From contig JAFRCC010000006.1 of assembly GCA_017404545.1 (NCBI GenBank), forward strand, positions 8 to 64,007: DNA of 64,000 nucleotides, written 5' to 3'. This document shows positions 4,439 to 56,384 of the stretch, in pieces. Positions within the stretch are counted from its first letter, which is position 1. Each line of letters opens with the position of its first letter. Both the position numbers and the translations under genes were made by a program. The DNA comes from Clostridia bacterium (GTDB lineage: Bacteria > Bacillota > Clostridia > TANB77 > CAG-508). The notes under the pieces were generated by a model. The model was not told the DNA's origin. It did not search any database and saw only the letters and a program-made list of their open reading frames with translations.

Positions 4439-5728
4439 ATGAGTAATAAGAAATCACTAATGTTAATAATATTATCGATTTTTATGATTAGTGTTGTTAT
4501 AGGAGCGGTTTCTGCAAACTCTTCATTTGAAGAAAATTATTCTATAACTGAAACCGATAATACCGTTGCTCCATTGTCCGATATGAACTATTTGACTGAA
4601 TATAGTTCTTATTCAGACGAATCAGATTATAGTTCCGACAATGTTGAAACTACTGTTGATGATGGTACTTCAGACAGCAGTTCTGATGATGATAATGAGA
4701 ATATTGATGAAGAAACTCCTGAATATGACGGAGAATTCATTGTTGAAAATATAACTCAAAAATATGACGGATGGGGGTCTGACATATCCGTCTGGTTACA
4801 AGACAATGATGAAAATCCGCTTATTTTAGGAGATGGAGTTGTAACTCTTCATTGGAGTGATGGGACAATATCAAAACAATATGATAATGATTGGTATAAT
4901 CTCGAAATAATTGCTGATGAAATAAATTACGGCGTTGTTGATTATTCCGTATATGATTACTGGTTGTATGATGATGACGAATACGAGTGGGAAGGATATT
5001 ATTCAATTTTTAACAAGCCGGTAGGAACTTATACTGTAACGGCTGTTTGCAATGATGATGTTTACAATATTAAACCTGCAACATTTACAGTTAAAATTAA
5101 TAAAGGAACAGTTAAATTAACTCCCAAAGCTTATCATTGTGCTAAAGGAGATTATGCTACTTTAAAATGTAACGTCGTCGATTCTTACGGCCAATTTGTC
5201 GATGAAGGTACAGTAACTTTCAAAATTGATGGAAAAGAATACAAAGTAAAAGTATCCCGTGGAGTTGCTACTAAAAAAATAAAATTGTCAAAAGCTAAGA
5301 CTTATAAATATACAGCTACATTCAACGGAGACAATTATGTTTCAAAATCAGGGTCTAGTAGTATATACGTTTATAAAATCACTAAAAAAGCTAGAACTTT
5401 CAAAATTGGAAAATATAAAGCTGTAGTTCCATTAGCCAAATATAAAAAATTGATTAATGCTAAAAATACTAATAAACGTATTAGTTTTCATAACATCTAT
5501 ACTGGTAAAAAAATCACTCAAAAGGTTAAAGTAAACGGAAAATGGAAAACTATGAGAAACGTAAAAGTTTACTTTAATATTGCTTATGGTGGTAAAACTG
5601 GAGGGCAAGATTGCAATCCTAATAAATATTGCATTTATCTAGGAACTAAATATCAAAATCCCGGTTATGATGATTTTAAACCTTGGGTAGACGGGTATAA
5701 AACTAAAACATTACTTACTGATTTTTAA
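4439..5728 (+). CDS. secreted adhesin-like protein with Ig-like domain and Lys/Tyr-rich C-terminus
   Basis: N-terminal signal/TM helix, acidic D/S-rich region, Big-like segment (TVTAVCNDD...KVKVSRGVATKKIKL). Paralogous to 55374-56384. Confidence 0.6.
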   Translation: MSNKKSLMLIILSIFMISVVIGAVSANSSFEENYSITETDNTVAPLSDMNYLTEYSSYSDESDYSSDNVETTVDDGTSDSSSDDDNENIDEETPEYDGEFIVENITQKYDGWGSDISVWLQDNDENPLILGDGVVTLHWSDGTISKQYDNDWYNLEIIADEINYGVVDYSVYDYWLYDDDEYEWEGYYSIFNKPVGTYTVTAVCNDDVYNIKPATFTVKINKGTVKLTPKAYHCAKGDYATLKCNVVDSYGQFVDEGTVTFKIDGKEYKVKVSRGVATKKIKLSKAKTYKYTATFNGDNYVSKSGSSSIYVYKITKKARTFKIGKYKAVVPLAKYKKLINAKNTNKRISFHNIYTGKKITQKVKVNGKWKTMRNVKVYFNIAYGGKTGGQDCNPNKYCIYLGTKYQNPGYDDFKPWVDGYKTKTLLTDF

Positions 5729-5744
5729 TTATTAAATTAAGTAT

Positions 5745-5788
5745 AATCTGTTGAGATTATATCTTAACAGATTTTTTAATCTTTTTTT
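5745..5788 (+). terminator. hairpin (12-bp stem AATCTGTTGAGA/TCTTAACAGATT, loop TTATA) plus T-tract
   Basis: Starts 17 nt after the 4439-5728 stop and is followed by TTTTTTAATCTTTTTTT. Confidence 0.6.
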
Positions 5789-6657
5789 ATAGAGATTTTT
5801 TGAAGGTCGAAATTTACTACTTCTAAGATTTTCAATTATTATACGTTTCCCTATTTTTTTTCTATTTTTTTGAAAACATACGCCATGTGTTTTTGGACTT
5901 TTTGGTGTTCAAACTAACAAAAATTAATTTTATTATTGAATATTGTTCATTAAATCAAAAAGATAACATTTAAATATTCAAATGACAAATCTATAATTGA
6001 CCTTCACTAAAATACTTGAATTGATTTCAAAACGTTATTTTAGGGAAGGTAAAAAAAGTATCAATAGGAGTTTCAAATAAGTTAGAAATTGTTAAAAATC
6101 AGTAAAATTACAAAAAAAGACTGGATTCATAAATAAGGATTATAAAAGTAAAAAAGATATTTACTTTTTGAACAACGAGCTGATAAATATGTTTTTTATT
6201 TATAATCCTCGTAATGGGGTCAGTTAAGAAAGATAAAAAGAGTTAAACGGAGTCGCAAAACCATGTTTAATGCCTTTACTGTTCAAAACTTAACCCAATA
6301 ACTAGTTTATCTTTATAAATATATAAAGATTTGCACTAATATTAGGTTTTTTGAATAGAAAATAAGGTAAACAAATGTATTCAACTTTTTTTATTTTTCG
6401 TTATTTTTTTGTAGGTACTTGAGTTTAGATCAAGAATTACCTCATTACTTGGTTTTATTATTGATATTTTTGAGAGATATGAGAAGGGCTTTTGTTATTT
6501 AAATAACAATTAGTCCTCAATATCGGTATATTTATATGTATAGCGATATAAATTAAGAATTAGATTAATAATTTTTAGTTAAATATTAATCTGCTAGTGA
6601 ATAACGCTCCAATGAGTTATTCGGAGAATGATGAGGAGTTAAGATGGAGTCGCAACC

Positions 6658-6852
6658 ATGTACGAAATAAGAAAATGGGTAATTAAACCAGTCTTGAATG
6701 AGGTTATATATTCTAACCTCAACTTTCAAGCTCTGGAGGAAATACTCGGAGAACTCTCTGATAATATGAGTGAAAAAGAGTTCTTTGATTTATACGAAAT
6801 TGAAGAGCTAGAAACTGGATTAAAGAACAACGAAGTATTATGTTCAATTTAA
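6658..6852 (+). CDS. hypothetical early protein
   Basis: ORF preceded by the conserved GGAGTCGCAACCATG translation-initiation motif. Confidence 0.5.
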   Translation: MYEIRKWVIKPVLNEVIYSNLNFQALEEILGELSDNMSEKEFFDLYEIEELETGLKNNEVLCSI

Positions 6853-6904
6853 TCCTTTAGTTTGTCGAATTTTAAAACAAAAAATAACATTAGGAGTCGC
6901 AACC

Positions 6905-7015
6905 ATGTTAAAAGAAGAAGTTATTGACGGGAAACCTCACGTTCTTGTACCTAAAGAGGTATGGAATGAGATTTGGTCTATATTTGATAAAATTACTGAA
7001 ATGGGGGAGTAAATA
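6905..7015 (+). CDS. small hypothetical protein (36 aa)
   Basis: Third copy of GGAGTCGCAACCATG initiates this ORF (MLKEEVIDGKPHVLVPKEVWNEIWSIFDKITEMGE). Confidence 0.3.
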
Positions 7016-7033
7016 TGAGTATTTACTCTCCAT

Positions 7034-8189: not shown

Positions 8190-8193
8190 TTAG

Positions 8194-8454: not shown

Positions 8455-8456
8455 AT

Positions 8457-9017: not shown

Positions 9018-9056
9018 ATATATATTCCCTTCTAATTTTTTTATGAGCTGATAAAT

Positions 9057-9956: not shown

Positions 9957-11936
9957 ATGGCTTATAATCCAAAAGGACTGTTAAAAAAGTTCATCGAAGA
10001 TAATTATTCAGATGAAATTGAAGAATGCAAGTCATTACACCGACAGTCCAAAGTTAGTATTGATTTTGTAAAATTGAATCAATACCTCTTAGATGAAAGC
10101 GGTAAAGATTTTTTTCATTGGCGGATGTATTCATTCATTCCCGCTATTGAAGAATTTTACAATACTAACTTAACTCCAAAAGAACATATCAGTTTTAAAT
10201 TCATTAATGTACCTGAAACAGTTGAATTGCATAACTTAGACGCTACTAACAACAAAGAATGGATTTCTTGTAAAGCGATGGTTAAAAACATCACAGATAT
10301 TCGAGTAGACTTGAAACAAGCCGTTTATGAATGTCAAGAATGTCTTAAATTAACCGTCGTTAATGTGGCTGATAGTAATAATATTTTAATTCCGACTGTT
10401 TGTGAAAAATGTCAAGGAAAAAGGTTGAAACTTCTGAAAGATAGTAGCAATTACAGAGATTATCGACTGGTTAAGCTTGAAGAACCTTTAGAACTGCGAA
10501 AGGGAGGCAGTACAAGAGAATTAAAAGGCTATATGCAGGATTATCTTGCGAGCCCTTATCATAATATCAAAGCGGGAGATGTTGTCGATGTTACTGGAGA
10601 ATTTAGGGTTGAACCTCGTAAAGTACGGGGAAAATCAGACGGCTTTGAATTTCTAATCGATATTCATAATATAACTCCCGTTGATGATGCTTTTGAAGAT
10701 TACCGTTTGACTGAATCTGATAAAGAGATGATAATTGAGTTATCTAAAAGGGACGATATTTATGATTTGTTAGTTAATACTCTTGCTCCTGAAATCTTCG
10801 GTCATAAAACTGTCAAAGAAGGCTTAATTTTGCAGTTATTTGAAGGAAGCAGACCGGTCGATGATGTTTTCAAGAATAATAGTATGGAGAGATGGACTTC
10901 TCATATCCTTTTGATAGGTGACCCGGGAATTGGAAAATCTCAATTGGTAACTGCTGTTAATAAAAGAGCTCCTAAAATCATCAGTATTGCAGGAACTAAT
11001 ACAAGCCAATCCGGACTTACAACAAGCGCCGTAAAAGACGAACTAACGGGGACTTGGACGATGGAAGCCGGCGGTGTAATCCTTGCAGATACTGGTTTAT
11101 TGTGTATTGACGAGTTCGACAAATTAACTCCTTCAGCTCAAAAAAGTCTTAATGAACCGATGGAGCAATTATCAGTATCATCTGCTAAAGCCGGTTTGGT
11201 TCAAACTATGACTGCTAGAACCAGTATATTGGCAGTAGCCAATCCTAAGTATTCTAAATTCATGGATTCAAAACCTATGAAAGAACAATTGGATATTGCC
11301 GATTCTACGCTATCTAGGTTTGATTTAATATTTGTTCTAAGGGACAATGTTAATGAAACTAAGGATAGAAATTTGGCTAAAACTCTATTGACTAAAAATT
11401 CTATTGATAATGATGTAGAAACTCTATCTGACGATTGTTTTAAAAAATATATTACTTATATGAAGGCTAATTGCTTTCCAGTTTTGACTGACGAAGTAAT
11501 TGATATTTTATCGGAGTTCTATGTAGAGGTAAGACAACAAGCTAGCAAAAGTTACGATGGCAAACCGATTACTGCAAGGGACTTGAAATCTTTAGAGCGT
11601 TTAACAATTGCCCGTGCTAAATGCGAGGGCAGAACTACAACGAAAGTTGAAGATGCTAAAGAAGCTATACGGATTTATAGTGAAAGTTTATACAGCTTAG
11701 GTTTGGACTTAACAACAGCGGGCGAGCTTGTAGGTGTTGCCTCTAACAAAGAAATGGATATAATTTTGGAAGTTGATAAAATGGTGAAAGCTAAAGCTGA
11801 ATATGAAGGACTTCCTTTGTCTAGTGAAAGTATACAGAATTTAAAACACGAATGCGGAGTATTATGTCAAGGTACTAATCTGGACTATAATGTCGTTGTG
11901 GAAGATGCAATAACGAAATTCGAAAAAAGACTATAA
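9957..11936 (+). CDS. mcm: MCM-family replicative helicase
   Basis: C4 zinc finger (CQEC...CEKC), Walker A ILLIGDPGIGKSQL, Walker B LLCIDEFDKL, arginine finger SRFDLIFVL. Confidence 0.9.
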   Translation: MAYNPKGLLKKFIEDNYSDEIEECKSLHRQSKVSIDFVKLNQYLLDESGKDFFHWRMYSFIPAIEEFYNTNLTPKEHISFKFINVPETVELHNLDATNNKEWISCKAMVKNITDIRVDLKQAVYECQECLKLTVVNVADSNNILIPTVCEKCQGKRLKLLKDSSNYRDYRLVKLEEPLELRKGGSTRELKGYMQDYLASPYHNIKAGDVVDVTGEFRVEPRKVRGKSDGFEFLIDIHNITPVDDAFEDYRLTESDKEMIIELSKRDDIYDLLVNTLAPEIFGHKTVKEGLILQLFEGSRPVDDVFKNNSMERWTSHILLIGDPGIGKSQLVTAVNKRAPKIISIAGTNTSQSGLTTSAVKDELTGTWTMEAGGVILADTGLLCIDEFDKLTPSAQKSLNEPMEQLSVSSAKAGLVQTMTARTSILAVANPKYSKFMDSKPMKEQLDIADSTLSRFDLIFVLRDNVNETKDRNLAKTLLTKNSIDNDVETLSDDCFKKYITYMKANCFPVLTDEVIDILSEFYVEVRQQASKSYDGKPITARDLKSLERLTIARAKCEGRTTTKVEDAKEAIRIYSESLYSLGLDLTTAGELVGVASNKEMDIILEVDKMVKAKAEYEGLPLSSESIQNLKHECGVLCQGTNLDYNVVVEDAITKFEKRL

Positions 11937-14307: not shown

Positions 14308-14341
14308 GATTTCAAGCGCTGAAACGTTTAAAAAAAGCATA

Positions 14342-14377
14342 TACATATATGTAACCCCGCTAAATCTATAATTAACG
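14342..14377 (+). promoter_or_regulatory. promoter-like bipartite element TACATATATGTA-N12-CTATAATTAACG
   Basis: Same architecture and spacing as the elements at 53433-53468 and 54212-54247. ATG of the next gene 20 nt downstream. Confidence 0.5.
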
Positions 14378-14396
14378 ACTTATGGAGATGTAAATT

Positions 14397-16242: not shown

Positions 16243-16537
16243 GATTACTATTTTTTTTCAATGAATTTTACTTTAGAACTATTTTTAATTTTCCGATTAC
16301 ATAACAAATGCTCTCTCGGAAAAAGCGTATATTTTATATTTGTACTAATATACAACTAGGAGTCACATATTTCAGTTCGACTTTTTTTTATTTGTGAAAA
16401 GTTGGTTTTATTGGTGATGGTTGAGAACCTGAAAATGTGACTTCTTACTCTATTTTTAAATTTAGAACGTGCAGATTTTGTTTTATGTTAATAAAAAATC
16501 AAAATTATCCTTTTAAGAAAAATCCGAATAGGATATA

Positions 16538-16945
16538 TTAATATTTGCTATTTATTTTATAAATATCGAATTCTTCAAATATTAATCCAAAAGGCATATT
16601 TAAAAAAATACACCTAGCGCAATTTTCATTAATAAATTCATAAAAGATGGAAGTAATTCTTTTATCTAATCCCCAATCATTTATTCTAGTTGTAAATTTA
16701 TCATCAATTAAATATTTGATAATAAAACTATCTTTTTTAAAATTAATCTGAAATTGAAAGACTTCCCCGTTATATACTAATTCATAATCAATTGTTTTAG
16801 TAACGTAATTATTTTTTAATTCTAATTCAATGAGTTGTTCTAATACTTCATCAAAAGTACAATTTTGCTTTTCTTTGATTTGTTTTAATATATTATAAGT
16901 TTTTATCGGAACTGTAGTGTTGGTTTGATTTATAGGGTTAGGCAT
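16538..16945 (-). CDS. hypothetical protein, downstream partner of a small RHH gene
   Basis: ORF on the minus strand directly abutting a 43-aa RHH-like ORF. Confidence 0.4.
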   Translation of the reverse strand: MPNPINQTNTTVPIKTYNILKQIKEKQNCTFDEVLEQLIELELKNNYVTKTIDYELVYNGEVFQFQINFKKDSFIIKYLIDDKFTTRINDWGLDKRITSIFYEFINENCARCIFLNMPFGLIFEEFDIYKINSKY

Positions 16946-17077
16946 TCATAACAACTCTTTATAATAGGTTTCGGTTAATCGAGTAATTACTTCAGAAATA
17001 GTTTCACTATTATTTATTTTGCATTGCTCTAATTTGTTTTTTGTATTTTTTTTGAAAACTATTGTTTTTCTATTCAT
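16946..17077 (-). CDS. small ribbon-helix-helix-like protein (43 aa; possible antitoxin or regulator)
   Basis: MNRKTIVFKKNTKNKLEQCKINNSETISEVITRLTETYYKELL: beta-strand then two short helices. No gap before the 16538-16945 gene. Confidence 0.35.
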   Translation of the reverse strand: MNRKTIVFKKNTKNKLEQCKINNSETISEVITRLTETYYKELL

Positions 17078-17215
17078 ATTTTATAGATTTATTCTTTCAA
17101 GTTTTTAAATTATCGTTTTGTATAATTCAATAATAAGATTAATCCAACTCATTAACGAAATAAGGCGCTAAGTAATTATTAACCTTCAATAAGGTTGTTG
17201 TTTAATCTTCAGTTG

Positions 17216-44707: not shown

Positions 44708-46530
44708 GCTTTTTAACCGTCGAAGATGTAAATTCAACCCTAATAAAATATCATAATATCAACCTATTTCATACAATAAACACTAGAAATATCGATATAG
44801 ATGAGTTTGAAGGGGTAAAATATGATTTTTGCATCGTAAATCATGGTATTAGTGGTAATAACCACACCTTTGAGTTCAATATTGTTAATAGTAATTGGAC
44901 GGGCGCTTATTACTTTTTAGATGAAAATGACAATTATTTAGATTTAGACGCTACATATGACAGTAACGATAATGTTTTAACATTTACTACCACCCACGAA
45001 AGCGTAAAATTGATTTTATATTGTTCTAGTCTTGCCGATGAGTTTAATATTGTTAGATTAACTTGGAGACCAATCTCACTTAATACTCTTGTAACTTCAT
45101 CTATTGAAAATATAATTGAAGATATTCCAGTTATGAGTTTGAATAATGAAGATTTATACGGTAAAAGATATGTAATTCAAAATACTAATGAAACTCACGG
45201 AGAATATTTCAATTTAAATAGTGATAATCAGCCTACATTTGCCCAAACGGCAAATTCTAATTCTAATAAAACTGCAATAAGTTATAACGGAGCTAAATTT
45301 TACTATGATTGTTTTGTTAAAAAGATTGCTCCAAATATTGAAATTAACAACGATTTAACAGTGGGGAAAATAAACCGTGTAGAATTATCAGTTTCTTATG
45401 ATCTTACTGACGTAAATAATGTTATCTCAATACCTTCTTTGGCCGGATATGTTTATTATGAAGATAAAACAATCCCGATTCAATTAGACTCAAATACTGG
45501 GAACTATTATTTTGATTTAGATTTATTGGAAAAATCTAATAATAATCACGTTAAATTGTCATTAGAGATTTTAGAAACGGATTATGTTCAAGGAAAACTT
45601 TATAATTTCGTTATAGCCTCTGAATATGTTTCTGTTGATAACGTTTCTGACTTTATTAGGGAGCTCGGAAGTAATGGTTGTAAGATTATCGAGCTAGCAA
45701 ATGACTTTACTTTGTTTGATGACGTTACTGTTTATCATGATATAATTATATACGGTAAAGACCATTCATTGAATTTAAACGAACATTCTTTTATTTTAAA
45801 CGAGGGTTTGACTTTAAAAGTAAATAAGATATCCTTTAATAACGGGGACAACGCCATTATTCAAAACGATAATACAAATTTAGAACTAACTGATTGTACT
45901 TTTTACAATTGTAAATCTAGGAACTATAACAATATAGGTTCTTGTATTTTCTGTGATGTGAACTTGGAAAGTTTGTCTGTCGATGATGATTTCACTACTA
46001 ATTTGTATAATTGTACCTTTATCAACAATCATTCAGCGATTCTACACGGAGGACAATTAACAGTAGATAATTGTAAATTCCTCAACAATATTTTAGAGGT
46101 TGTTGATATGAATAATCCGGCGTTCCTTTATCAAGTAAGCGGGGACGCTTCAATTTCAAATAGTATTTTTGATATTGATTATTCAAATAAAAATGGATTA
46201 TGTACTAATAGTCAAAATATTGGTTTTGCTCAAGCCTTATTCATGTGCGGTCAGTTAGCAACAATTAACAGAGCTAATTATACTTATTTACAATCCGATG
46301 ATACTTTACCATTCTTCGAATCACCTTATAACAATAAAGCTCATTTATTCGTGAAATATTATTATTCCCAAATTAGCGCTTGCGTATTTGCTAGTCCCGT
46401 TCTTAATTATGAAGATAAATCTTGTTGTCATGCAGTTAGCGGGGTTGATTGGGTTTTCAAAAATAATGTTCAAATTACTCGTGCAGACTGGGAAAGTGAG
46501 AATAATATAAATAAAATTGATTGGGAGTGA
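44704..46530 (+). CDS. tail fiber/spike protein with right-handed parallel beta-helix repeats
   Basis: Repeated N-x-T/C motifs typical of beta-helix/pectate-lyase-like folds (LTDCTFYNCKS, NCTFINNHSAILHGGQLTVDNCKFLNN). Confidence 0.5.
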   Translation: MSFLTVEDVNSTLIKYHNINLFHTINTRNIDIDEFEGVKYDFCIVNHGISGNNHTFEFNIVNSNWTGAYYFLDENDNYLDLDATYDSNDNVLTFTTTHESVKLILYCSSLADEFNIVRLTWRPISLNTLVTSSIENIIEDIPVMSLNNEDLYGKRYVIQNTNETHGEYFNLNSDNQPTFAQTANSNSNKTAISYNGAKFYYDCFVKKIAPNIEINNDLTVGKINRVELSVSYDLTDVNNVISIPSLAGYVYYEDKTIPIQLDSNTGNYYFDLDLLEKSNNNHVKLSLEILETDYVQGKLYNFVIASEYVSVDNVSDFIRELGSNGCKIIELANDFTLFDDVTVYHDIIIYGKDHSLNLNEHSFILNEGLTLKVNKISFNNGDNAIIQNDNTNLELTDCTFYNCKSRNYNNIGSCIFCDVNLESLSVDDDFTTNLYNCTFINNHSAILHGGQLTVDNCKFLNNILEVVDMNNPAFLYQVSGDASISNSIFDIDYSNKNGLCTNSQNIGFAQALFMCGQLATINRANYTYLQSDDTLPFFESPYNNKAHLFVKYYYSQISACVFASPVLNYEDKSCCHAVSGVDWVFKNNVQITRADWESENNINKIDWE

Positions 46531-46538
46531 ATAGAAAA

Positions 46539-48122
46539 ATGTATTTTTCAAATATTAATAATCCGGAGTTAAAACAATTTCATAAAGTTATCCCTTATAA
46601 TTTCAATATGAGTTTAACAGACGCTTTATCATCTGATTTGTTCTATATTGAAACAGTAATTCCTAATTCAATATATCGTATTTATTTACTGTTTTATTGT
46701 GATAAAATAACTTCTAGTAACGTTAATGATGTGATTTTGGAAAATAAATGTATTATCTGTAATAAGACTAGTGAAGAAACCTATTTTAATTTCGTTTCTA
46801 ACGATAATGATAAGTTTATCTTAAATCAAAAAACCGGATACTACTCATTTGAGGATACTTTAAGCGATGAGGATTATAACGCTATTGTTCAGTTATTGAG
46901 AGCAAATAATTCTTTTGAAGAAAATATCCAAATTAATAACAGTATTGTAAACGGAGATTATGGAACTTATATTTTCAATCTAAAATCAACTACTATCGTT
47001 GATAATGGAGTTTTGATCACTAACGAGACATTATCTAGTATAGGTACTGTTAAACTAATGAGCCCTACATTTAAAAACAGCAGTTATCAATTAAAATTAA
47101 CAGTATACAGTTTATCCGACGTTAATGTTTGTAATGAGTCTAATGATGATAATATTGAAAAAACTGAACTAATAATTGATTTAGTTGAAGGTTCAGAGGT
47201 AAATATTCCTTTTAATACCTTAGATTTGAATTGTATTGTAGGATTTAACGCCGTTGTTAATATTGCTCATGATTTACCCGTTATCACTTATTCTCAAGAT
47301 ATAATTTTAACTAGCGATAAATCACAGTGCGTTATTGGAGATACTCTCAATTTAAACGCTTTATACTTGGAAGATGATTCTCCATTGGAAAATGAAGTAA
47401 TTACCTTTAAAAACGGAACTGAAATATTGGGAACTGGAACAACCGATTCTAACGGGATTGCAAATTTCCAATATACAATTTTAAACGATTCTACATTGAA
47501 TATTGTTGCAATTAACAGTGCAGGAAAGATTATTTCAAATAATATAGAAATAGATGTATCTAATAAACTAAGTACCATCTCTTTGGAAGTTTCTAAAAGT
47601 CTTGTTAATGTAGGTGATGTAGTCGTTATTTCCGGTTATCTTCTTAGTGGTTCAGAACCATTATCAAATTATGAAGTTAAAATCTTAAACGGTGATGAAT
47701 TATTTGTAAATCGTACAACCGACGCTAACGGAAGATATTATATAAATTTAAGTGTTGGTAACGTATTAGATTATGATTTAAAAGCTGTTTTTGATGGGGA
47801 TTCAACATATAGTAGCTCTCAAAGTCAATATGTTCACGTCAGAAGCGCTAAATTAGCCGTTAGTTTTCAAGCTATTAGGTGGGGTATAACTGAATACGCA
47901 TTTATTACTGGAAAAATGATTTCTTCAGATGGTAATTTATTAACTAATGCCCCTATCTCTATTTATTGGAAGGGCTCGTCTTATGAAGATGTTTCTGAAA
48001 CTAGAACTGCTACTGACGGAACTTTTGCCGGAAGGCGTCTTAGTAATGGGCAAATTGAATATATTGTTGTTGTATTTGAGGGAGACGAAACTCACCAACC
48101 AGTTACAGCAGTTTGGGGGTGA
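46539..48122 (+). CDS. tail fiber / adhesin-like protein with Ig-like repeats (ATG 46539 preferred over TTG 46521)
   Basis: RBS GGGAGTGA. Repeated Big-like segments (e.g. VISGYLLSGSEPLSNYEVKILNGDELFVNRTTDANGRYYINLSV). Confidence 0.45.
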   Translation: MYFSNINNPELKQFHKVIPYNFNMSLTDALSSDLFYIETVIPNSIYRIYLLFYCDKITSSNVNDVILENKCIICNKTSEETYFNFVSNDNDKFILNQKTGYYSFEDTLSDEDYNAIVQLLRANNSFEENIQINNSIVNGDYGTYIFNLKSTTIVDNGVLITNETLSSIGTVKLMSPTFKNSSYQLKLTVYSLSDVNVCNESNDDNIEKTELIIDLVEGSEVNIPFNTLDLNCIVGFNAVVNIAHDLPVITYSQDIILTSDKSQCVIGDTLNLNALYLEDDSPLENEVITFKNGTEILGTGTTDSNGIANFQYTILNDSTLNIVAINSAGKIISNNIEIDVSNKLSTISLEVSKSLVNVGDVVVISGYLLSGSEPLSNYEVKILNGDELFVNRTTDANGRYYINLSVGNVLDYDLKAVFDGDSTYSSSQSQYVHVRSAKLAVSFQAIRWGITEYAFITGKMISSDGNLLTNAPISIYWKGSSYEDVSETRTATDGTFAGRRLSNGQIEYIVVVFEGDETHQPVTAVWG

Positions 48123-48126: not shown

Positions 48127-50799
48127 ATGAGTAAAAGAACCTTAGCTGATGAAATGATAACTTTAATTCAAAGTGAATCAAATAACAATCCCGCTCCTAA
48201 ACCCTGCAAAATAGTTGGCAATTATGGAACTAATCCTTATTGCGACGTAGAAGTTGAAGATTTAGGTAAATTAATCCATAAAAAAACAATAGGCAGTACA
48301 GAAATAGGTTCAGAAGGTATTATTTGCTTTTTAAACGGAGATTTAAATCAAGGAATTGTAATAACTCACGATGAAACAGCTCCAATAATTGAATGGTTTA
48401 ATCAAAATAATATAATCGATTTATTGTACTATCTCGAAAATTACGGTAAAAAGTCAGATAAATCCTATTATTTGTTTAGAGGTGATTGTTGGACTATTAA
48501 CAATAATTTCGAATCTAGCGCCTCAATTACTAGTAAAACCGACAAGGATTTTACCGTTACTGGAACATTCCGAACTAGAAATGATATTGTAGGTATTTAT
48601 TGGAACTCGGAAGATGTTATTCAACACCCGTATATCAGTTATGGTTCTATAACTGATTATTCTGACGTAATCTTAGAGTTTGATTATGAAATGAGCGGTT
48701 GTAAAGATTTTTCTAATGGAGTTATAAGTATTACTGTCGGAATGAATGACGGTTCAACATATTATATGACTATGAACCGTTTTATTGAAGATAATCATGT
48801 TACTCTTGATTTTAATAATCTTACTTTACTAGCTGGAAATGTTTATATTGATTCTGAAGGTGAGGAAATAGAGATTACAGAAACAACTCCCTTAGACGTA
48901 ACTGATGTAAAATATATTATGTTTGTTATAGTTCCTTCTAACTATGTAGAAAACAAAGAACAATATACAATTATTAGAAATACGGACTTTACTTGTAAGA
49001 TAAGCAATATTGAAGTTACTAATGGTGAAATTTGTAAAGAGTATATACCGTTAGACCCTCAAGAATATCGATTGTGTGAAGGTTATGACGATTTTTATGA
49101 TTTGAACCCTTATAGAGTTTGTAGGGAAATGAGGAAACTAGGATATGTAAATTGGATTGATTTATATATCGGCGCCTCTCATTTTTACGAAAAAAGCGGG
49201 ACTGTTGGAGATTTAATAACTATATCTGAAACTTTGAATCATACTCAAACAGAAAAAATGGTTTTAAATCAAAAAGTACCCTTGAATAGAGCTTTTACTA
49301 CTTGGTTGGATTGTTATTCTCGTGAATTAAAAGCTAACGGTAGTGATAAGCTTGTTGTTAGTGTATCTATGGAGAATTTGCAGTGCCCTACTAGTTGGAG
49401 ACAAAAAGCCTGTAATGGAAATTACGCTTTAACCGGTTGGGTTCCCTCTACTTTCTTTTATAGTCCTTGTAATCCGGAAGTATTGTCTTATATGCAGTCC
49501 GTTAGTGAAGCTTGTCTTGATATAGTTGTAGCTAATGATTTACAACCTATTCTTCAGATGGGTGAGGCTTGGTGGTGGTGGAATGAAAACGATAAACCTA
49601 ATCAACCGCCTTGTTTTTATGACGATTCTACTAGAAACAGTTATTATAAAGAGTTCGGTGAGAATATTCCGGAATATTCGTCATCTTGGGAAAATTACGA
49701 TAATAAACTCACTTCTTGGCTCAATAAACAATTAGTTAAATATAGTGATGGGTTAAGAGAGGTTGTAAAAGATTCTAAGTATAAAAACGGCTTGTATATG
49801 GCTTTATTTTTCCCTCCTTCCGTTACTGATGTTGATAGGGTTCCGGCTATGATGAGAGAGGTTAATTTTTTGAAAGATGCTTATACTCCTTTGAAATTAG
49901 ATGTTTTACAGCTAGAAGATTATGATTGGGTTACTGGCGAGAGCGTACATCATGATGAAGTCTACTCGTTAGGTCAAGAATTAGGATTTAGTGAGGATAG
50001 ATTACATTATTTTGGAGGTTTTGTTCAGTATCCTGAAGATGCGCCTAAGTTTTGGAATTTAATCTCTAAATCAATGGAAACTGCAATAAATAAGAAATTT
50101 AAAGAAGTCTTTGTTTGGGCGGGTTCTCAAGTAAGACGGGACGGAAAATTCATAGGTCATTACGCTTATGAGCTAATACAAAGATTGTTAGATAAAATTC
50201 CGGACGTTAAAGCTTATGATGATTCTGATTTGGTTTCTAGAATAACTAGTGCTGAAGGACAAATTACTACGATGGGAGGGCGAGTTTCTACTTTAAATGG
50301 AGAATTAACTACTCTAGACGGCAAAGTAACTACTTTAGAAGGTCAAGTATCAACTTTAGATGGAGAACTGACTACTTTGGAGGGTCAAGTTTCTACTTTA
50401 GATGGTGAAGTAACAACCTTAGAAGGTCAAATAACACCAATAGTTGATAGTGGGTGGGTTAATTTGAGTTTAACCGGTAATTTTTACAATTTTGATTCTA
50501 CTAATAGTGTAAAATACCGTAAATATGGAAGTGAGGTTCAAATTACTGGACTTCCAGTGTTAAATGCCTATCCTTCTGCGCTAACTGAATTAATCATTGG
50601 AACGTTGCCTAGTGGTTTTAGACCAATCCGTGACGTATCTTTTGTTTGTGAGTTAAAAGACGATGATAAGCTGTGGACTTGTACCGTAAAGTCTAACGGA
50701 GAGGTTACTTTCAACCGTTTGAGAGATAATACTGGTTTTGTTGCCGGAACTGCTTTTGCAGACGTTTTAAAATTAAATGTTAATTTCTTAATTGACTAA
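48127..50799 (+). CDS. large tail fiber protein with trimeric coiled-coil stalk and C-terminal receptor-binding-like head
   Basis: 890 aa containing seven TLxGxxT heptads and a central Trp-rich region (GEAWWWWNEND). Confidence 0.55.
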   Translation: MSKRTLADEMITLIQSESNNNPAPKPCKIVGNYGTNPYCDVEVEDLGKLIHKKTIGSTEIGSEGIICFLNGDLNQGIVITHDETAPIIEWFNQNNIIDLLYYLENYGKKSDKSYYLFRGDCWTINNNFESSASITSKTDKDFTVTGTFRTRNDIVGIYWNSEDVIQHPYISYGSITDYSDVILEFDYEMSGCKDFSNGVISITVGMNDGSTYYMTMNRFIEDNHVTLDFNNLTLLAGNVYIDSEGEEIEITETTPLDVTDVKYIMFVIVPSNYVENKEQYTIIRNTDFTCKISNIEVTNGEICKEYIPLDPQEYRLCEGYDDFYDLNPYRVCREMRKLGYVNWIDLYIGASHFYEKSGTVGDLITISETLNHTQTEKMVLNQKVPLNRAFTTWLDCYSRELKANGSDKLVVSVSMENLQCPTSWRQKACNGNYALTGWVPSTFFYSPCNPEVLSYMQSVSEACLDIVVANDLQPILQMGEAWWWWNENDKPNQPPCFYDDSTRNSYYKEFGENIPEYSSSWENYDNKLTSWLNKQLVKYSDGLREVVKDSKYKNGLYMALFFPPSVTDVDRVPAMMREVNFLKDAYTPLKLDVLQLEDYDWVTGESVHHDEVYSLGQELGFSEDRLHYFGGFVQYPEDAPKFWNLISKSMETAINKKFKEVFVWAGSQVRRDGKFIGHYAYELIQRLLDKIPDVKAYDDSDLVSRITSAEGQITTMGGRVSTLNGELTTLDGKVTTLEGQVSTLDGELTTLEGQVSTLDGEVTTLEGQITPIVDSGWVNLSLTGNFYNFDSTNSVKYRKYGSEVQITGLPVLNAYPSALTELIIGTLPSGFRPIRDVSFVCELKDDDKLWTCTVKSNGEVTFNRLRDNTGFVAGTAFADVLKLNVNFLID
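50284..50430 (+). repeat. 7 x 21-bp tandem repeat inside the tail fiber gene, encoding the heptad stalk
   Basis: gtttctactttaaatggagaa / ttaactactctagacggcaaa / gtaactactttagaaggtcaa ... read directly. Confidence 0.8.
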
Positions 50800-50813: not shown

Positions 50814-51800
50814 ATGATAAAGAAAAGCGAAATTAAGCTAATTGCTGAAAAAATCAAAGAATATGTAGAAAAAAATAAGGAAATACCCAATTCAATAGAA
50901 GTAAATAAGAAAAAATACTCAAAAACCGAGTGTTTATACATTTTAGGATATGCTATTGATCATCTAAATGAAAATTTTGATTTTAAAAGCGGTAAAGTAG
51001 CAAGTAATCCTGTAATTACTGTCATTAATGAAGATATTTATGAGTCTGATTATAAAGACCAATCTAAAAGATTATGCCAATATTTAAATCAAAACGGTAA
51101 AGCTCCGAATTACATTAAATCAGTTAAATCCTCAACTAAGATTTCGCCGGATTTGGAGTTGTACGCTTTTGCTAAAATAATCGATTATTATTACAAAAAT
51201 AAAAGATTGCCTAATTATTGCAATTATAATTCTAGCGTATTGGCTAGCGTTAAGTCCAGTAAAAACAATTGCAGTAATCCTTATAAATCATCTCCTCACC
51301 CTACTAAAAAGGGTTGCGATGCTATGGGTCAAAATACTGGTTATTTTTGTGCAATTTGTGCACTGCAACATTCTTTATTCAAATTCGGTATCTACGTTTC
51401 TCAAAGCCAATTAGCAAAATGGGCGGGGACAACTAGCTCCGGAACTTCTCATCAAGGAATCCGTACTGCCGTTGCAATGGTAAACAGTAAATATCACGTT
51501 AATATTTCCGTAGATGAGAAAAACTTCAGTGATTTAGGTTTAGAAGGGTTGGCAAAACTTATCTGTAAAAGTAACGTTGATGTGATAATTCATTTGTTAT
51601 ATCGTCTTAAATACGGTCATTATGAGTCAATTAACGAAATTGACGTGAAAAATAAGATGTTTAAGATTTTAAACTCACTTGGAAACAAATGCTCTGGTGG
51701 TTGCTATTGCGGTTACGTTGAGGATAGATCATTAGCTGTAGAAAAATCATATATCGGTGGAATTAGTCAGAAATCCATCATTATTTTAACTAAAAATTAG
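50814..51800 (+). CDS. pei: pseudomurein endoisopeptidase (Pei-like lysin) with two N-terminal pseudomurein-binding repeats
   Basis: Two PMBR-like repeats (IKLIAEKIKEYVEKNKEIPNSIEVNKKKYSKTECLYILGYAI; LCQYLNQNGKAPNYIKS...LELYAFAKIIDYYYKNKRLPNYCNY). C-terminal Cys/His peptidase-like domain (GYFCAICALQHS...HLLYRLKYGHYESIN). Start in GAGCTGATAAATATG. Confidence 0.75.
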   Translation: MIKKSEIKLIAEKIKEYVEKNKEIPNSIEVNKKKYSKTECLYILGYAIDHLNENFDFKSGKVASNPVITVINEDIYESDYKDQSKRLCQYLNQNGKAPNYIKSVKSSTKISPDLELYAFAKIIDYYYKNKRLPNYCNYNSSVLASVKSSKNNCSNPYKSSPHPTKKGCDAMGQNTGYFCAICALQHSLFKFGIYVSQSQLAKWAGTTSSGTSHQGIRTAVAMVNSKYHVNISVDEKNFSDLGLEGLAKLICKSNVDVIIHLLYRLKYGHYESINEIDVKNKMFKILNSLGNKCSGGCYCGYVEDRSLAVEKSYIGGISQKSIIILTKN

Positions 51801-51808
51801 GTGAAAAT

Positions 51809-52278: not shown

Positions 52279-52369
52279 CTCCCTCCCGTATTTTTGAATA
52301 AAAATATTTAAAATGTATAAAAACAAATTTATACCCATATTGCTATCAAAATATGCGCGAGGGTCAATT

Positions 52370-53242
52370 ATGAAAAACACTAAAAAGCTGATATTGCTAT
52401 TAGTATTGTCTATTTTTCTTGTGGGTATGTTGATGGGGTCAGCAACAGCAACTCATACAGTTAAAGTAGGTAAATATACTGGAACAATATCGGATAATGA
52501 TTATAAAAAATTACAAAATGCTAAAAGTAAAAATAAGGATTGTTCCGTTCTTAATGTTAAATCTAATAATAAAGGATATAGTATGGCAATTTACTATAAC
52601 ACCTTTTCGGGTTATGAGCCAATGTCCGGAATTACATTTGAAAAAGGATTTTTGGGTAGTGTATGGAAAAACGGTGAAGAATCTCCGATAATTGCTTATA
52701 AAAAAGCCACTATATCATCTAAAACCACAACAAATACTAAAAAAAATACTGTTTACACAAAACCACATACTTACAATCTGGGAGGATATAAAGTAACAGT
52801 TTCAGCTAAACAATATACTCAATTGAAGAAACATAAGAATACAAATACTTTATATATTGCTTATAAGAATATTGGCAATAAAAATGTTAAAGTTCCTAAG
52901 TATAAGACTGTGAAAAAGAAAGTATGGGAGACTAAATTAGTATTGGATGAAAAATTAGTTTATAGTTCCGATTGGTCTGATTCTACTTGGTATGAATATC
53001 ATGCTGATAGATACAGTAAAGCCGGTTGGAAATATTATGGAAGTAAAACTGTAGAATCCAATAATGGCCATGTTATTAAATATTATCAGAAATATAAAAA
53101 ACAAGTAACTAAAAACGTTAAAGTTAAAAATGGTTATAAAACGGTTAAAGTTCCAATTAAAGCTGAAATTTGGTCTAATGGAATGTATAAATTATATGAT
53201 AAGAACGGATATTTCTATAAATCCGGTAAAGTAAATATTTAA
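52370..53242 (+). CDS. secreted Lys/Tyr-rich protein (start at ATG 52370; the ORF track extends it to 52313)
   Basis: Signal/TM helix MKNTKKLILLLVLSIFLVGMLMGSATA. C-terminus K/Y-rich like 4439-5728 and 55374-56384. Confidence 0.5.
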   Translation: MKNTKKLILLLVLSIFLVGMLMGSATATHTVKVGKYTGTISDNDYKKLQNAKSKNKDCSVLNVKSNNKGYSMAIYYNTFSGYEPMSGITFEKGFLGSVWKNGEESPIIAYKKATISSKTTTNTKKNTVYTKPHTYNLGGYKVTVSAKQYTQLKKHKNTNTLYIAYKNIGNKNVKVPKYKTVKKKVWETKLVLDEKLVYSSDWSDSTWYEYHADRYSKAGWKYYGSKTVESNNGHVIKYYQKYKKQVTKNVKVKNGYKTVKVPIKAEIWSNGMYKLYDKNGYFYKSGKVNI

Positions 53243-53278: not shown

Positions 53279-53432
53279 GTCTAATTTTTTCAAGTGTATG
53301 AAATAGTTTATTTTAACTTTTTTTCTATTGATTATTTTCATTAATTAATTTAACTAATTGTTCTCTGATTAAATACTGCTTAACTAACTCACTTATTTTT
53401 TTTATTAAATTTAAGCATTTACAACGTCGTAA

Positions 53433-53468
53433 TACATATATGTACTAGAGTTCTATCTATAACTATCG
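53433..53468 (+). promoter_or_regulatory. promoter-like bipartite element TACATATATGTA-N12-CTATAACTATCG, followed by a small hairpin CGGA-TTACG-TCCG
   Basis: Identical architecture at 14342-14377 and 54212-54247. Confidence 0.5.
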
Positions 53469-53543
53469 GATTACGTCCGGTGAGAACTTGAATTTATTTA
53501 TAACTTCAAGTGAACTGTTAAAAATGATGGAGAATTGATTTAA

Positions 53544-53708: not shown

Positions 53709-53726
53709 GAATAACGAGCTGATAAT

Positions 53727-54116
53727 ATGAACAGAGCTGAATACTTAACTGAATTAATGAAAAGAGATGTGGAATCTATTGTAACTGCTGAAGAAGATGT
53801 TAAAGATATGGAGTTAAAATTAATCGTAGAGCTTAAAAAAGCTGAAGAAAAATGTGATGCTTATGAGGAAATGTACGAAGATGACGAAGGACTTATAATG
53901 TCTGCTTATACTGAATACGAAAGAGTTAGAAGTCCTATAACTCAATTAGAGTCTTTAGTTCAAGACTTCAAAATTAGCTTAATCGACCACTACGAACAAT
54001 TGTTAATAGAAAAAAGAGCCTATAATGAGGAAATCCGCAAAGCTTTGGCTACTGCTAAATATAATGTCGTTAAAATGGACGAAACTGTAGAAATTATTAA
54101 AGGTGTTTTAATCTAA
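53727..54116 (+). CDS. hypothetical acidic protein
   Basis: ATG in the 14-nt variant motif GAGCTGATAATATG. Confidence 0.45.
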   Translation: MNRAEYLTELMKRDVESIVTAEEDVKDMELKLIVELKKAEEKCDAYEEMYEDDEGLIMSAYTEYERVRSPITQLESLVQDFKISLIDHYEQLLIEKRAYNEEIRKALATAKYNVVKMDETVEIIKGVLI

Positions 54117-54211
54117 ACACCTATTATTTTTTTTCAATAAAATCCGTTGAATTATTGTAAAACCTCACCAAATATTATGATTTTAAAATTCAATCATTTA
54201 CGTTGGAGTAA

Positions 54212-54247
54212 TACATATATGTAGCGCTGTCCTAACTATAACTATCG
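54212..54247 (+). promoter_or_regulatory. promoter-like bipartite element TACATATATGTA-N12-CTATAACTATCG, followed by a hairpin CGAGA-N9-TCTCG
   Basis: Third copy of the conserved element. Confidence 0.5.
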
Positions 54248-54289
54248 AGAGTTAAATTATCTCGTGAAATAATTAAGGAGCTGATAAAT

Positions 54290-54604
54290 ATGAAAAACTT
54301 TGTTAAAATTATGGAAAACGTTGAAAACCTTGTAAAAGGCTGTGAAGGATATGTTGAATACGGATTTATTCCTGACGAAAATGTCGTTAGTGTAAGAGTA
54401 TTTGAATATGATGATTACGCTGAATATTGCGATGATTTAGAATACTACAACTTTACTCTCGTATTTTCCGAGTTATTCGAACAAATCAAAACCCAATGCA
54501 ATGACCTTGCAGAAAACATAAAATCCTACGTACCAACTGATGCGGATAAAATGTGCTACGGATATTTCAACTACCGTGAAATTCTCATAACTCCTCGTGA
54601 CTAG
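54290..54604 (+). CDS. hypothetical protein
   Basis: ATG in AGGAGCTGATAAATATG. Confidence 0.45.
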   Translation: MKNFVKIMENVENLVKGCEGYVEYGFIPDENVVSVRVFEYDDYAEYCDDLEYYNFTLVFSELFEQIKTQCNDLAENIKSYVPTDADKMCYGYFNYREILITPRD

Positions 54605-54613
54605 GTGATCTAA

Positions 54614-54850
54614 ATGTATGGATTTAACTTTATTATCAGAAATGATATGAAAGTATCTTTTTTCATTGATAAAAATGACGAATTTTACCATTGGCAATAT
54701 ATTAATGGATTTAATTATGATTTGGACGACTTTGAAAGGGATTTGATTAATAAATTTGGTAAAGATTTCTTAATCCGGACGGTTAAAGAGATGGCGGTTT
54801 ATGAAACTAAGAGATTAAACGGTCATATTGAATTGGTGAGGTTTGAATAA
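54614..54850 (+). CDS. hypothetical protein
   Basis: ORF with RBS AGGTGAT. Confidence 0.4.
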   Translation: MYGFNFIIRNDMKVSFFIDKNDEFYHWQYINGFNYDLDDFERDLINKFGKDFLIRTVKEMAVYETKRLNGHIELVRFE

Positions 54851-55280
54851 GATGTCCGATTATACTACTGTGAGGATTAAAAAATCCTCACTCGAAAAAA
54901 TCAATAAAATGAAAGGGGAACACGGGTCAGTTGCCGATGTTGTTGAAAAACTTCTAAGTTCTGTAGGAGGTTGTAGTATTGACGATATTCTTGAGATTAA
55001 CAGAGATAGCGTTGCTATAACTTTAGAATACTTATTTTTTGATGGAAAAAGTTTTCATCTAGCCAATGAGTATTATATTACTTTTCAAGAACTAAGATTA
55101 AGCAAAGTTGGTGATACTTTCACTGCAAATCAAAATCCGGCTGATGATAGTTATTCCCTCGATACCGCTGAAGTTTTATTTGTTGATGAACGTTCCGTCT
55201 TAGTTAGAGTAACTGAAACTTTGAAAAGTGAAAATCAGGAAACTTCCGTTGTTCATATGGAGCATGTGGATTTGTTTTAA
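54843..55280 (+). CDS. hypothetical protein
   Basis: ORF. Confidence 0.4.
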   Translation: MNKMSDYTTVRIKKSSLEKINKMKGEHGSVADVVEKLLSSVGGCSIDDILEINRDSVAITLEYLFFDGKSFHLANEYYITFQELRLSKVGDTFTANQNPADDSYSLDTAEVLFVDERSVLVRVTETLKSENQETSVVHMEHVDLF

Positions 55281-55373
55281 TTTTATCTATTTTTTATTCG
55301 AAGTCAAGAAATAATCTTGACATTTTTCTATTTTTAATAAATTATTTTAATAACAAAATATATACCTTTATTC

Positions 55374-56384
55374 ATGAAATATAATAGATTGGTTGTGTTG
55401 GGACTTGTTTTAATTGTTCTATTTTTAAGTATTGGAGTAACAACTGCAAATGAAAATACTACTTTAGAAGGTGTAGAATCTAATGTAGAGGATACTTTAA
55501 TGAGTTATGATGAAAATTTAGGGGAATATGGGGATTATGGGGAAAACTATAATGCTAGAATCATAGCTAACAACGTAACAGTAGAATATGATGATGAATA
55601 TGAACTATCAATCTATATTGTTGATAATAACAATAATCCAATAGAAATGGCGGAACCTTATTTTGAAGATTATTTAAATTCATGGTACGATTCTAACGGA
55701 TATTATTATTTTTATCCAAGTAATTATGATGTAGGAACTCATAATGTTACATTTACTCTTGACGACGGTCTTTATAAAGCAGAACCCGTTTCAATTAATA
55801 TGAAAATTGTTAAATCTGTATTTTATGGCGAAATTACTTGTAAATCTTATTGGGGAACTACTAAAAGCACTTTAACAATGAAAGCAACCGTTTATAATCC
55901 TTATGGAAGTTTTTATGAAGAGGGTTATGTTACTTTTAAAGTTAATGGAAAATCTTATAAAGTTAAAACTAAAGGTGGCGTAGCAACTAAAACAATAAAA
56001 ATTAAAAAATCCGGAACTTATACCTATACTGCAAAATTTATTAATAACAATTACAAATCATCAGGAGTAACTGGTAAAGCCAAATTATATGTTAAAAAAT
56101 ATAAAAAATATTATACATTTACAGCAAAAGATTATGATAAACATAAAACTACTGGTAAATTGATATATAAATTACCTTATAAGTATTATCTGAAATTATT
56201 AACTGCAAAAAGTAAAGGAAAAACTTGTTATTTGAATTTCAAAAGTAAAGTCAAAGTTTATGGAAATAAATGGTATAAAACCAGATGTGGATTTGATTTA
56301 AATAAAAAAGGTAAATTAACATTTACTTATGAGGTAGATACTTATTCCCATCCTGTTTTTGCATATAAAGTATATAATTTGTAG
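55374..56384 (+). CDS. secreted adhesin-like protein with Ig-like domain and Lys/Tyr-rich C-terminus (paralog of 4439-5728)
   Basis: Signal/TM helix. Big-like segment GEITCKSYWGTTKSTLTMKATVYNPYGSFYEEGYVTFKVNGKSYKVKTKGGVATKTIKIKK aligns with the 4439-5728 protein. Confidence 0.55.
   Translation: MKYNRLVVLGLVLIVLFLSIGVTTANENTTLEGVESNVEDTLMSYDENLGEYGDYGENYNARIIANNVTVEYDDEYELSIYIVDNNNNPIEMAEPYFEDYLNSWYDSNGYYYFYPSNYDVGTHNVTFTLDDGLYKAEPVSINMKIVKSVFYGEITCKSYWGTTKSTLTMKATVYNPYGSFYEEGYVTFKVNGKSYKVKTKGGVATKTIKIKKSGTYTYTAKFINNNYKSSGVTGKAKLYVKKYKKYYTFTAKDYDKHKTTGKLIYKLPYKYYLKLLTAKSKGKTCYLNFKSKVKVYGNKWYKTRCGFDLNKKGKLTFTYEVDTYSHPVFAYKVYNL

Follow-up and report, generated by a model that had tools for sequence, protein, structure and literature searches.

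A provirus of a Methanobrevibacter-type methanogen carries three genes for predicted exported, lysine- and tyrosine-rich proteins that are probably host-derived adhesin-like morons

Introduction

Why would an integrated virus of a methanogen carry three genes for secreted proteins rich in lysine and tyrosine, one near each of its ends and one behind its lysin gene? This question is raised by a 64,000-nucleotide stretch of DNA (contig JAFRCC010000006.1 of assembly GCA_017404545.1, hereafter called the window), most of which is an integrated tailed virus of about 54.1 kb. The genes, referred to here as open reading frames (ORFs) 1 to 3, lie at positions 4439-5728, 52370-53242 and 55374-56384. 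A preliminary description of the window, made from the sequence alone, had taken them for paralogous surface or adhesin genes acquired as 'morons', with the first gene bracketed by a direct repeat of about 27 nucleotides. All three reading frames are present as described.

We consider it probable that ORF1, ORF2 and ORF3 are host-derived accessory ('moron') genes for wall-associated, adhesin-like proteins in the provirus of a Methanobrevibacter-type methanogen. Each gene would be its own small transcription unit encoding an envelope protein exported by the Sec pathway, and each would have been captured from paralogues in the host chromosome. ORF1 would have arrived as a cassette of about 1.5 kb that entered the terminator region of the integrase gene and left about 40 nucleotides duplicated on both sides. 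Transcription from the prophage would proceed independently of the lytic programme, and the products would be exported and held on the pseudomurein wall by a cationic module, with the Ig-like part exposed. The surface of the lysogen would thereby be altered, affecting adhesion to partner microbes or gut glycans, or masking a virus receptor (superinfection exclusion). The observation itself is solid and the evolutionary account of ORF1 is well supported; the biological role given here to the three proteins is a proposed one.

Results and Discussion

Three predicted exported proteins share a basic C-terminal module

Each of the three proteins has one hydrophobic segment, which is N-terminal (Kyte-Doolittle score above 1.6, with no other segment above 0.7) and is followed by a small-x-small site: VSA↓N in ORF1, ATA↓T in ORF2 and TTA↓N in ORF3. 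The alanine at the cleavage site and the N-E-N-T-T that follows it are kept across 27 members of the ORF1/ORF3 family, and the ORF2 family has a conserved signal-peptidase-like site, ASA↓SHT, after its helix. These features support the prediction that all three proteins carry signal peptides and are exported, and they agree with the N-terminal signal or transmembrane helices originally noted. An ATG further upstream of ORF2, at 52313, is used neither by gene callers nor by homologues.

The C-terminal parts of the proteins are likewise as rich in lysine and tyrosine as had been claimed, with 20-23 % K, 8-16 % Y and an isoelectric point of 9.9-10.1, versus 8.0 % K and 4.7 % Y for the 56 other listed ORFs of at least 90 amino acids (aa) in the window. 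Base composition is most deviant in ORF3, with a GC content of 0.261 and a third-position value (GC3) of 0.142 that is the lowest of the listed provirus ORFs, versus provirus means of 0.325 +/- 0.032 and 0.263 +/- 0.049, respectively. ORF2 is mildly low in the same comparison.

The alignable Big-like segment reported for the first and third genes proved to be part of an extended relationship, in which about 320 residues of ORF1 and ORF3 align at 29 % identity (E 2e-25). Database searches with ORF1 and with ORF3 each recover about 60 proteins, 290-670 aa in length, and the two sets overlap to a large extent. An alignment of 27 family members reveals a common plan consisting of a signal peptide ending A↓NENTT, an acidic linker of low complexity (D+E about 30 %) and two Ig-like domains, after which comes a junction motif, KKARTFKIGKYKvvvPlxKYKKLxNAKNTNK. 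The C-terminal part of the family exists in at least three variants, and that of ORF1 differs from that of ORF3. The AlphaFold model of ORF3 (pLDDT 79) has a disordered linker, two Ig sandwiches and a C-terminal domain of the form beta-beta-alpha-beta4, and the full model matches structures with tandem Ig domains, such as invasin, InvD, FdeC-type proteins and RTX adhesin repeats (PDB, E about 1e-6). On the evidence of alignment and model, ORF1 and ORF3 are each predicted to carry two Ig-like (archaeal Big) domains.

ORF2 is a different kind of relative, and the term 'paralogous' holds for it only in part. It has no Ig domain by either Pfam scan or structure model, and in pairwise comparison only a 35-residue motif, found twice in ORF2 (E 2e-4 and 1e-3), is common to it and ORF1/ORF3. 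Profile-profile alignment of the two families (hhalign) gives 95 % probability and E 4e-8 over the C-terminal module, of which ORF2 holds an extra N-terminal copy of the first sub-module; elsewhere the proteins are not related. Most of the 12 indexed ORF2 homologues are about 190 aa long and consist of a signal peptide and the K/Y-rich domain, and in two of them (P0065 and P0067) the same domain is fused to Big domains. A full hidden Markov model search of 1.84 billion representatives recovered the ORF2-type domain in only 117 clusters, where it stands alone or forms the C terminus of proteins of 400-650 aa. Eight of the ten longer proteins scanned carry Big/Ig-like domains (Big_1/Big_3_5) or, in one case, a Chlam_PMP repeat. 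Proteins of 309, 311 and 278 aa encoded next to host paralogues were considered as ORF2 homologues and rejected, since they are not similar apart from one common RTFKIGKYK motif.

In the models of ORF3 and ORF2, the K/Y module (about 95-170 aa) begins with a beta-beta-alpha unit that is followed by long hairpins. Pfam has no family that extends over this module in ORF1, ORF2 or ORF3, and PHROGs, NCBIfam and PADLOC give no meaningful match for the three proteins. Foldseek searches of PDB and BFVD with the ORF2 model found no known fold below E 0.02, and a profile search of PDB sequences with the K/Y domain yielded only spurious matches to charged linkers. The module is apparently restricted to this methanogen lineage and absent from the domain databases searched.

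The genes lie outside the structural module, probably as separate units

The limits of the provirus, at about 3040-57194, are fixed by the empty-site allele of provirus-free strains. A look-up with a neighbouring host gene that has a SIS domain retrieved this host locus both from contigs that carry the provirus and from contigs free of it, and in the empty allele L044 (11000-13200) the sequence of the window continues up to 3052 and then again from 57182. The 10-nucleotide core CTAATACATA is present at both junctions (attL and attR). This comparison confirms that the genes are placed as reported, at the two provirus ends and behind the lysin gene. In the order of provirus genes ORF1 comes second and ORF3 second-to-last, with only a 51-aa ORF between it and attR. 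ORF2 begins 570 nucleotides past the lysin gene, and both it and ORF3 fall within the 5.4-kb stretch from the lysin to attR, beyond the portal-to-lysin module.

Hairpins followed by T-runs lie behind ORF1 and ORF2 and ahead of ORF3 (Table 1), an arrangement that supports the prediction that ORF1-3 are separate units bounded by terminator-like elements outside the structural module. AT-rich, TATA-like stretches are present upstream. The start contexts of the three genes are consistent with such a separation. The sequence GAGCTGATAAATATG occurs in seven exact copies (at 6177, 7413, 9045, 12573, 31775, 50802 and 54278; none expected), and in at least five of these (those at 9045, 12573, 31775, 50802 and 54278) the last three letters are the start codon of a listed ORF; the lysin gene and a 465-aa gene at 31787 are among these ORFs. 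Behind the copy at 6177 there is only a frame of 12 codons, whose ATG corresponds to ATT in a related provirus (L065). GAGCTGATAAATATG may be an extended ribosome-binding or regulatory motif, and this start context, typical of the provirus, is used by none of ORF1, ORF2 and ORF3.

ORF1 occupies a cassette inserted behind the integrase gene

The repeat around ORF1 is real and is longer than first reported. Its copies measure 39 and 41 nucleotides and share 34 identities with one gap of two nucleotides. The first directly follows the stop codon of the integrase gene, and since ORF1 has its own hairpin, the second lies beyond the 3' end of the gene proper. Scored with weights for base composition, the pair reaches 40.3, versus 18.3 +/- 2.3 (maximum 30.6) in 800 Markov shuffles. 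Plain +1/-1 scoring does not give a significant result in this T-rich DNA; composition-weighted scoring was needed. The preliminary description had itself cautioned that the repeat could be a general terminator consensus, which holds for one half of it only. The right, T-rich half, TTTTTCTATTTTT, is a terminator-like motif of gene ends with 13 copies in the window versus 3.5 expected, and it also precedes ORF3; the left half, TTATACRTTTCCC, is confined to the two copies.

Relatives of the integrase at 46-71 % identity are found in metagenomes. The scan with the integrase that recovered them revealed two proviruses, L065 and L066, that are related to the one in the window (62 % identity in the integrase, 66-82 % in early genes) and provide the comparison proposed as a check in the preliminary description. 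Neither contains ORF1. Each has one homologous copy of the repeat, ATTATACTTTCCACTATCTTTTCTTATTTTTTT, 21 nucleotides past the stop codon of the integrase gene, and the DNA after this single copy is conserved early-region sequence at a distance that fits the absence of a 1.5-kb cassette. Because these relatives lack ORF1 and have one repeat copy, we conclude that ORF1 is an inserted cassette of about 1.5 kb, and that the insertion duplicated about 40 nucleotides of the integrase terminator region. ORF1 thus stands between genes that are adjacent in relatives, which is the operational definition of a moron and is well supported.

Other origins of the repeat were considered and rejected. It is not an attachment site, given that the attachment core is CTAATACATA and that the sequence flanking ORF1, TTATACRTTTCCCTATTTTTT..., has no copy near attR. 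Nor was it brought from a host donor locus, as the flanks of two host paralogues (L021 and L014) do not contain it, and no trace of a second integrase precedes repeat copy 2. Among contigs with an identical integrase we found no variant that lacks ORF1, only one with a 1-nucleotide deletion. A scan of IMG/VR viral contigs for the repeat pattern produced one chance match, in a genome of 58 % GC.

The closest relatives reside in host loci

A scan of one genome per species located 22 loci with family members, all 22 in metagenome-assembled genomes (MAGs) of Methanobrevibacter or Methanosphaera from rumen or faeces. ORF3-like genes (47-55 % identity) occupy chromosomal clusters of small secreted proteins of Big_3_5 or pilin-N-like type, together with TPR and zinc-ribbon genes. 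An ORF1 homologue at 70 % identity adjoins a type I restriction-modification system and has no virus genes nearby, and P0065, one of the fused Big and K/Y proteins, is encoded in a defence island. Most family members are chromosomal and not part of viruses, and the closest homologues lie in non-viral loci of Methanobrevibacter and Methanosphaera, which fits capture from the host. These data support the conclusion that ORF1-3 belong to a superfamily of small adhesin-like proteins confined to these two genera.

ORF2-like genes also occur in two other virus-like contigs, each time as a lone gene on the strand opposite to its neighbours. In one (L017) the gene lies 2 kb from a lysin gene of the Peptidase_C71 type and tail genes, and in the other (L072) it is surrounded by small genes of early type, in a series that includes an AAA_24 ATPase gene. 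A related lysin gene in a further locus (L024) is the last provirus gene before the host genes, which indirectly suggests that what comes after the lysin gene in the window is optional cargo.

A different explanation is that ORF1-3 encode virion components, such as Ig-like decoration or fibre proteins for sticking to mucus or to the host, a function suggested for Ig-like domains of gut phages and gut methanogen viruses. Viruses of gut Methanobacteriales are reportedly enriched in Ig-like domains that have been read as capsid decoration (PMC11375127), and ORF2 and ORF3 are encoded on the same strand as the tail and lysis genes and come after them. Nevertheless, we find this explanation very improbable. 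All three proteins have cleavable-looking signal peptides, which are a misfit with cytoplasmic virion assembly; their genes lie outside the portal-to-lysin block with terminator-like hairpins between; their closest homologues are in non-viral host loci; and ORF1 is missing from related proviruses. The provirus moreover has Ig-type structural proteins of its own that lack signal peptides, encoded at 46521-48122 (Big_3_5) and 31787-33184 (C-terminal PEGA/CarboxypepD_reg), and these two genes are the likelier counterparts of the Ig-like decoration in gut methanogen viruses. When the 46521-48122 product was compared with ORF1 and ORF3 (the comparison was run for this one of the two proteins), no similarity was found.

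For ORF2 alone, the position next to the lysin gene invites the idea of a part in lysis, either as a holin- or antiholin-like protein or as a helper that targets the pseudomurein endoisopeptidase to the wall. ORF2 would then be built like the T4 holin T, in which a single membrane helix at the N terminus is joined to a large domain outside the membrane. No membrane-helix protein is encoded between lysin and ORF2 and no holin was recognised, the homologue in L017 is likewise near a lysin gene, and the ORF2 model has very long beta-hairpins with a weak, non-significant likeness to beta-pore-forming toxins (E 0.2). However, the homologues run opposite to the lysin gene and its neighbours in L017 and opposite to their neighbours in L072, and the same domain makes up the C terminus of Ig-like surface proteins encoded in host loci, one of them the defence island. 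The conserved signal-peptidase-like site after the helix is also unfavourable, as is the hairpin just past the stop codon that gives ORF2 its own terminator (a T-run after the preceding gene was read by eye). We therefore judge a role in lysis to be unlikely.

Observations that weigh against a host-derived moron, and the case for functionless passengers

Several of our observations do not favour host-derived, wall-associated morons. The base composition of ORF1 is within the range of the provirus and thus not atypical. Both Pfam matches to Ig-like domains are below the gathering threshold, with 34.7 versus a cut-off of 35.5 for Big_3_5 (PF16640) in ORF1 and 29.0 versus 34.9 for Big_1 (PF02369) in ORF3. 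The K/Y module has no recognised fold or function, and wall binding is suggested by its charge and by the architecture of the proteins. A scan with the family profile found no member of the ORF1/ORF3 family in IMG/VR viral contigs; these proteins are therefore not a general viral trait. Finally, one metagenome contig (L059, about 1475, corresponding to about 4500 in the window) has a 1-nucleotide deletion in the signal-peptide region of ORF1 that leads to a stop codon. This deletion may be an assembly error, or a natural knockout and a sign that ORF1 is dispensable. The sample with the truncated ORF1 also holds the empty site.

The frameshifted contig and the lack of relatives in IMG/VR would equally suit a simpler account, in which ORF1-3 are functionless passengers, accidentally and recently captured and on their way to decay, and the repeat is merely a common T-rich terminator consensus, as the frequency of its T-rich half at gene ends would suggest. 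We consider this account improbable. Several studies have yielded independent contigs, 13-17 of them, on which the frames of the three ORFs are undamaged and identical (the identical ORF1 protein is present on 17, always in the same context), and ORF2-like genes occur in three different virus backgrounds. The repeat, for its part, has a specific half that is not T-rich, scores far above shuffles and has a single-copy homologue at the same place in relatives.

Comparison with known systems

The adhesin-like proteins of Methanobrevibacter and Methanosphaera often exceed 1000 aa, and most but not all have a right-handed beta-helix (PMC11532034; PMC2812497). ORF1-3 are only 290-430 aa long, are encoded by a provirus, and have a basic Lys/Tyr-rich end module that is not in the domain table for these proteins (PMC11532034). 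Pfam gives no match to a right-handed beta-helix in any of the three, and none is present in the models of ORF3 and ORF2. They resemble adhesin-like proteins in their N-terminal hydrophobic segment for export or anchoring, in their narrow taxonomic range and in their many host paralogues, and ORF1 and ORF3, unlike ORF2, also have the repeated archaeal Big domains that Pfam scores weakly as Big_3_5 or Big_1. What sets ORF1-3 apart from known adhesin-like proteins is the small size, the lack of a beta-helix, a C-terminal module absent from the libraries and structure sets searched, and the presence of three copies in an archaeal provirus.

Temperate phages of bacteria carry morons that encode surface proteins, such as lom and bor of lambda. 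The likeness to these lies in an extra gene between genes that are adjacent in related viruses (ORF1), in a terminator-like element of its own, and in a product predicted to be an envelope protein and not to serve a virion or replication function. The differences are that the host is an archaeon with a pseudomurein wall, that there is no sequence relationship, that expression of ORF1-3 from the prophage is a prediction, that one provirus holds three related genes, and that the insertion left a 40-nucleotide duplication. Envelope proteins for superinfection exclusion that act at the cell surface include Ltp of Streptococcus phage TP-J34 and Llp of T5. Like these, ORF1-3 would be small exported prophage proteins, near the integrase/lysogeny region, but they have neither homology to them nor a lipobox, and the likeness is an analogy only.

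Ig-like folds are also encoded by the MSTV1-like viruses of gut Methanobacteriales. The Ig-like domains of these virions and of gut phages lack a signal peptide and are joined to capsid proteins, either directly or through a frameshift (PMC11375127). ORF1-3, in contrast, are stand-alone proteins with signal peptides that are encoded outside the structural module and have homologues in host chromosomes. As for attachment to the pseudomurein wall, the pseudomurein-binding repeat PMBR (PF09373), the established wall-binding module in these organisms and a part of the provirus lysin, is a candidate analogue of the K/Y module in role, although the two have no sequence similarity.

Possible consequences for the lysogen

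The part of the preliminary description that calls the genes adhesin-like morons is borne out by the predicted exported Ig-like family and by the insertion of ORF1, whereas an effect on the cell surface is something that we propose. Lysogenic conversion through a surface change is plausible on the basis of these gene features. A bolder proposal, which we regard as doubtful, is that the K/Y module is a previously undescribed pseudomurein-wall-binding domain, and that Methanobrevibacter viruses repeatedly capture host adhesin-like genes with this module to re-coat the surface of the lysogen. If true, no earlier case of surface lysogenic conversion would exist for a methanogen, and re-coating would block adsorption of related viruses or change which gut glycans or hydrogen-producing partners the methanogen attaches to.

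Among the gene classes of methanogens from gut and rumen, that of the adhesin-like proteins has expanded most and is understood least; its products presumably bring the cells into contact with hydrogen producers. If temperate viruses carry and move such genes, they would generate surface variation among methane-producing archaea and possibly offer a lever on the adhesion or virus susceptibility of methanogens. The empty site, the provirus with the cassette and the proviruses without it constitute a natural experiment.

The provirus, its host and neighbouring features

The identified provirus genes (Table 1) begin with a tyrosine integrase and include replication, tail and lysis functions. The lysin is homologous to the Peptidase_C71 lysin of L017. 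We infer a host of the Methanobrevibacter type because the GC content is about 30 %, the lysin is specific for pseudomurein, the flank encodes an archaeal eIF-5A, and all homologues have a corresponding taxonomy. The MAG that carries these proteins (P0001, P0058 and P0070) is named 'Clostridia bacterium' at NCBI, and its context is Methanobacteriaceae-like throughout. This label is probably a binning error, with the contig placed in the wrong bin. A megablast search in which 41 kb of the provirus was compared with 50,697 phage records found no related phage, and a scan of IMG/VR viral contigs with the integrase confirmed no relatives.

Table 1. Coordinates of the three genes, their flanking elements and other provirus features in the window
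Feature	Position	Strand	Basis or remark
attL core CTAATACATA, left provirus boundary	3040..3049		L044 empty-site comparison
Tyrosine integrase, first provirus gene	3178..4290	+	Phage_integrase / XerA-like matches
Repeat copy 1, directly after integrase stop codon	4298..4336	+	pairwise repeat and shuffle test
ORF1, 429 aa: signal peptide (aa 1-26), acidic linker, two Ig-like domains, basic K/Y module (aa ~313-429), predicted	4439..5728	+
Hairpin and T-run, ORF1's own terminator-like element	5745..5773	+	3' flank here partly alignable with host paralogue L021
Repeat copy 2, downstream of ORF1 terminator	5831..5871	+	pairwise repeat and shuffle test
MCM helicase	9957-11936		Pfam/NCBIfam
Portal	28418-29755		Pfam/NCBIfam
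Tape-measure protein	36986-39247		Pfam/NCBIfam
Transglutaminase-type tail protein	40114-42462		Pfam/NCBIfam
Big_3_5 tail protein, without signal peptide	46521-48122		Pfam/NCBIfam
TIM-barrel 'non-contractile tail sheath'-type protein, 890 aa	48127-50799		Pfam/NCBIfam
Lysin: pseudomurein-binding repeats and cysteine peptidase, end of late module	50814..51800	+	PMBR 8e-15, Peptidase_C39 3e-5
ORF2, 290 aa: signal peptide (aa 1-27), K/Y module copy A (aa 28-117), full K/Y domain B (aa 131-290), no Ig, predicted	52370..53242	+
Hairpin and T-run directly after ORF2 stop codon	53243..53263	+
Hairpin and TTTTTCTATTTTT, between preceding 145-aa gene and ORF3	55303..55321	+
ORF3, 336 aa: signal peptide (aa 1-25), acidic linker (26-58), Ig-like domains (59-146, 148-241), K/Y module (242-336), predicted	55374..56384	+
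attR core CTAATACATA, right provirus boundary	57185..57194		L044 empty-site comparison

The attachment core is intergenic, between a 100-aa gene and hsp20, and involves no tRNA gene. Strains of this host that lack the provirus are present both in the same samples and in related ones. Just left of attL, nested direct repeats (339-496 versus 2875-3034, about 160 nucleotides, 76 %; 650-810 versus 1847-2007, 161 nucleotides, 86 %) flank a host Fic gene and two paralogous 100-aa genes. The outer right copy (2875-3034) ends at the attachment core, and the nested repeats are also found in provirus-free strains; they may have been left behind when an element integrated, or a segment was duplicated, here at an earlier time. 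The host Fic gene (844-1863), which adjoins the attachment site, encodes a Fic domain and a C-terminal HTH and matches the SoFic anti-phage defence model (PADLOC, E 5e-57).

Within the provirus, a block on the minus strand (16280-20197) contains genes for an N6-adenine methyltransferase (18308-20197) and a type I specificity subunit (17216-18307) as well as a 135-aa gene. A 43-nucleotide sequence at the downstream edge of this block (16280-16322) is 77 % identical to 3084-3126, just upstream of the integrase gene, and the pair may be shared regulatory or recombination sites. An element of 42-75 nucleotides containing ATACATATATGTA...CTATAACTATCG is located upstream of three gene groups (53394-53468, 54173-54247 and 14341-14382) and resembles a promoter or operator that provirus genes have in common. 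About nine tandem 21-nucleotide units (50254-50444) within the gene for the 890-aa tail protein encode heptads such as GQVSTLDGELTTLE, which form a coiled-coil or fibre-like segment (DUF7310/SlaB-like match).

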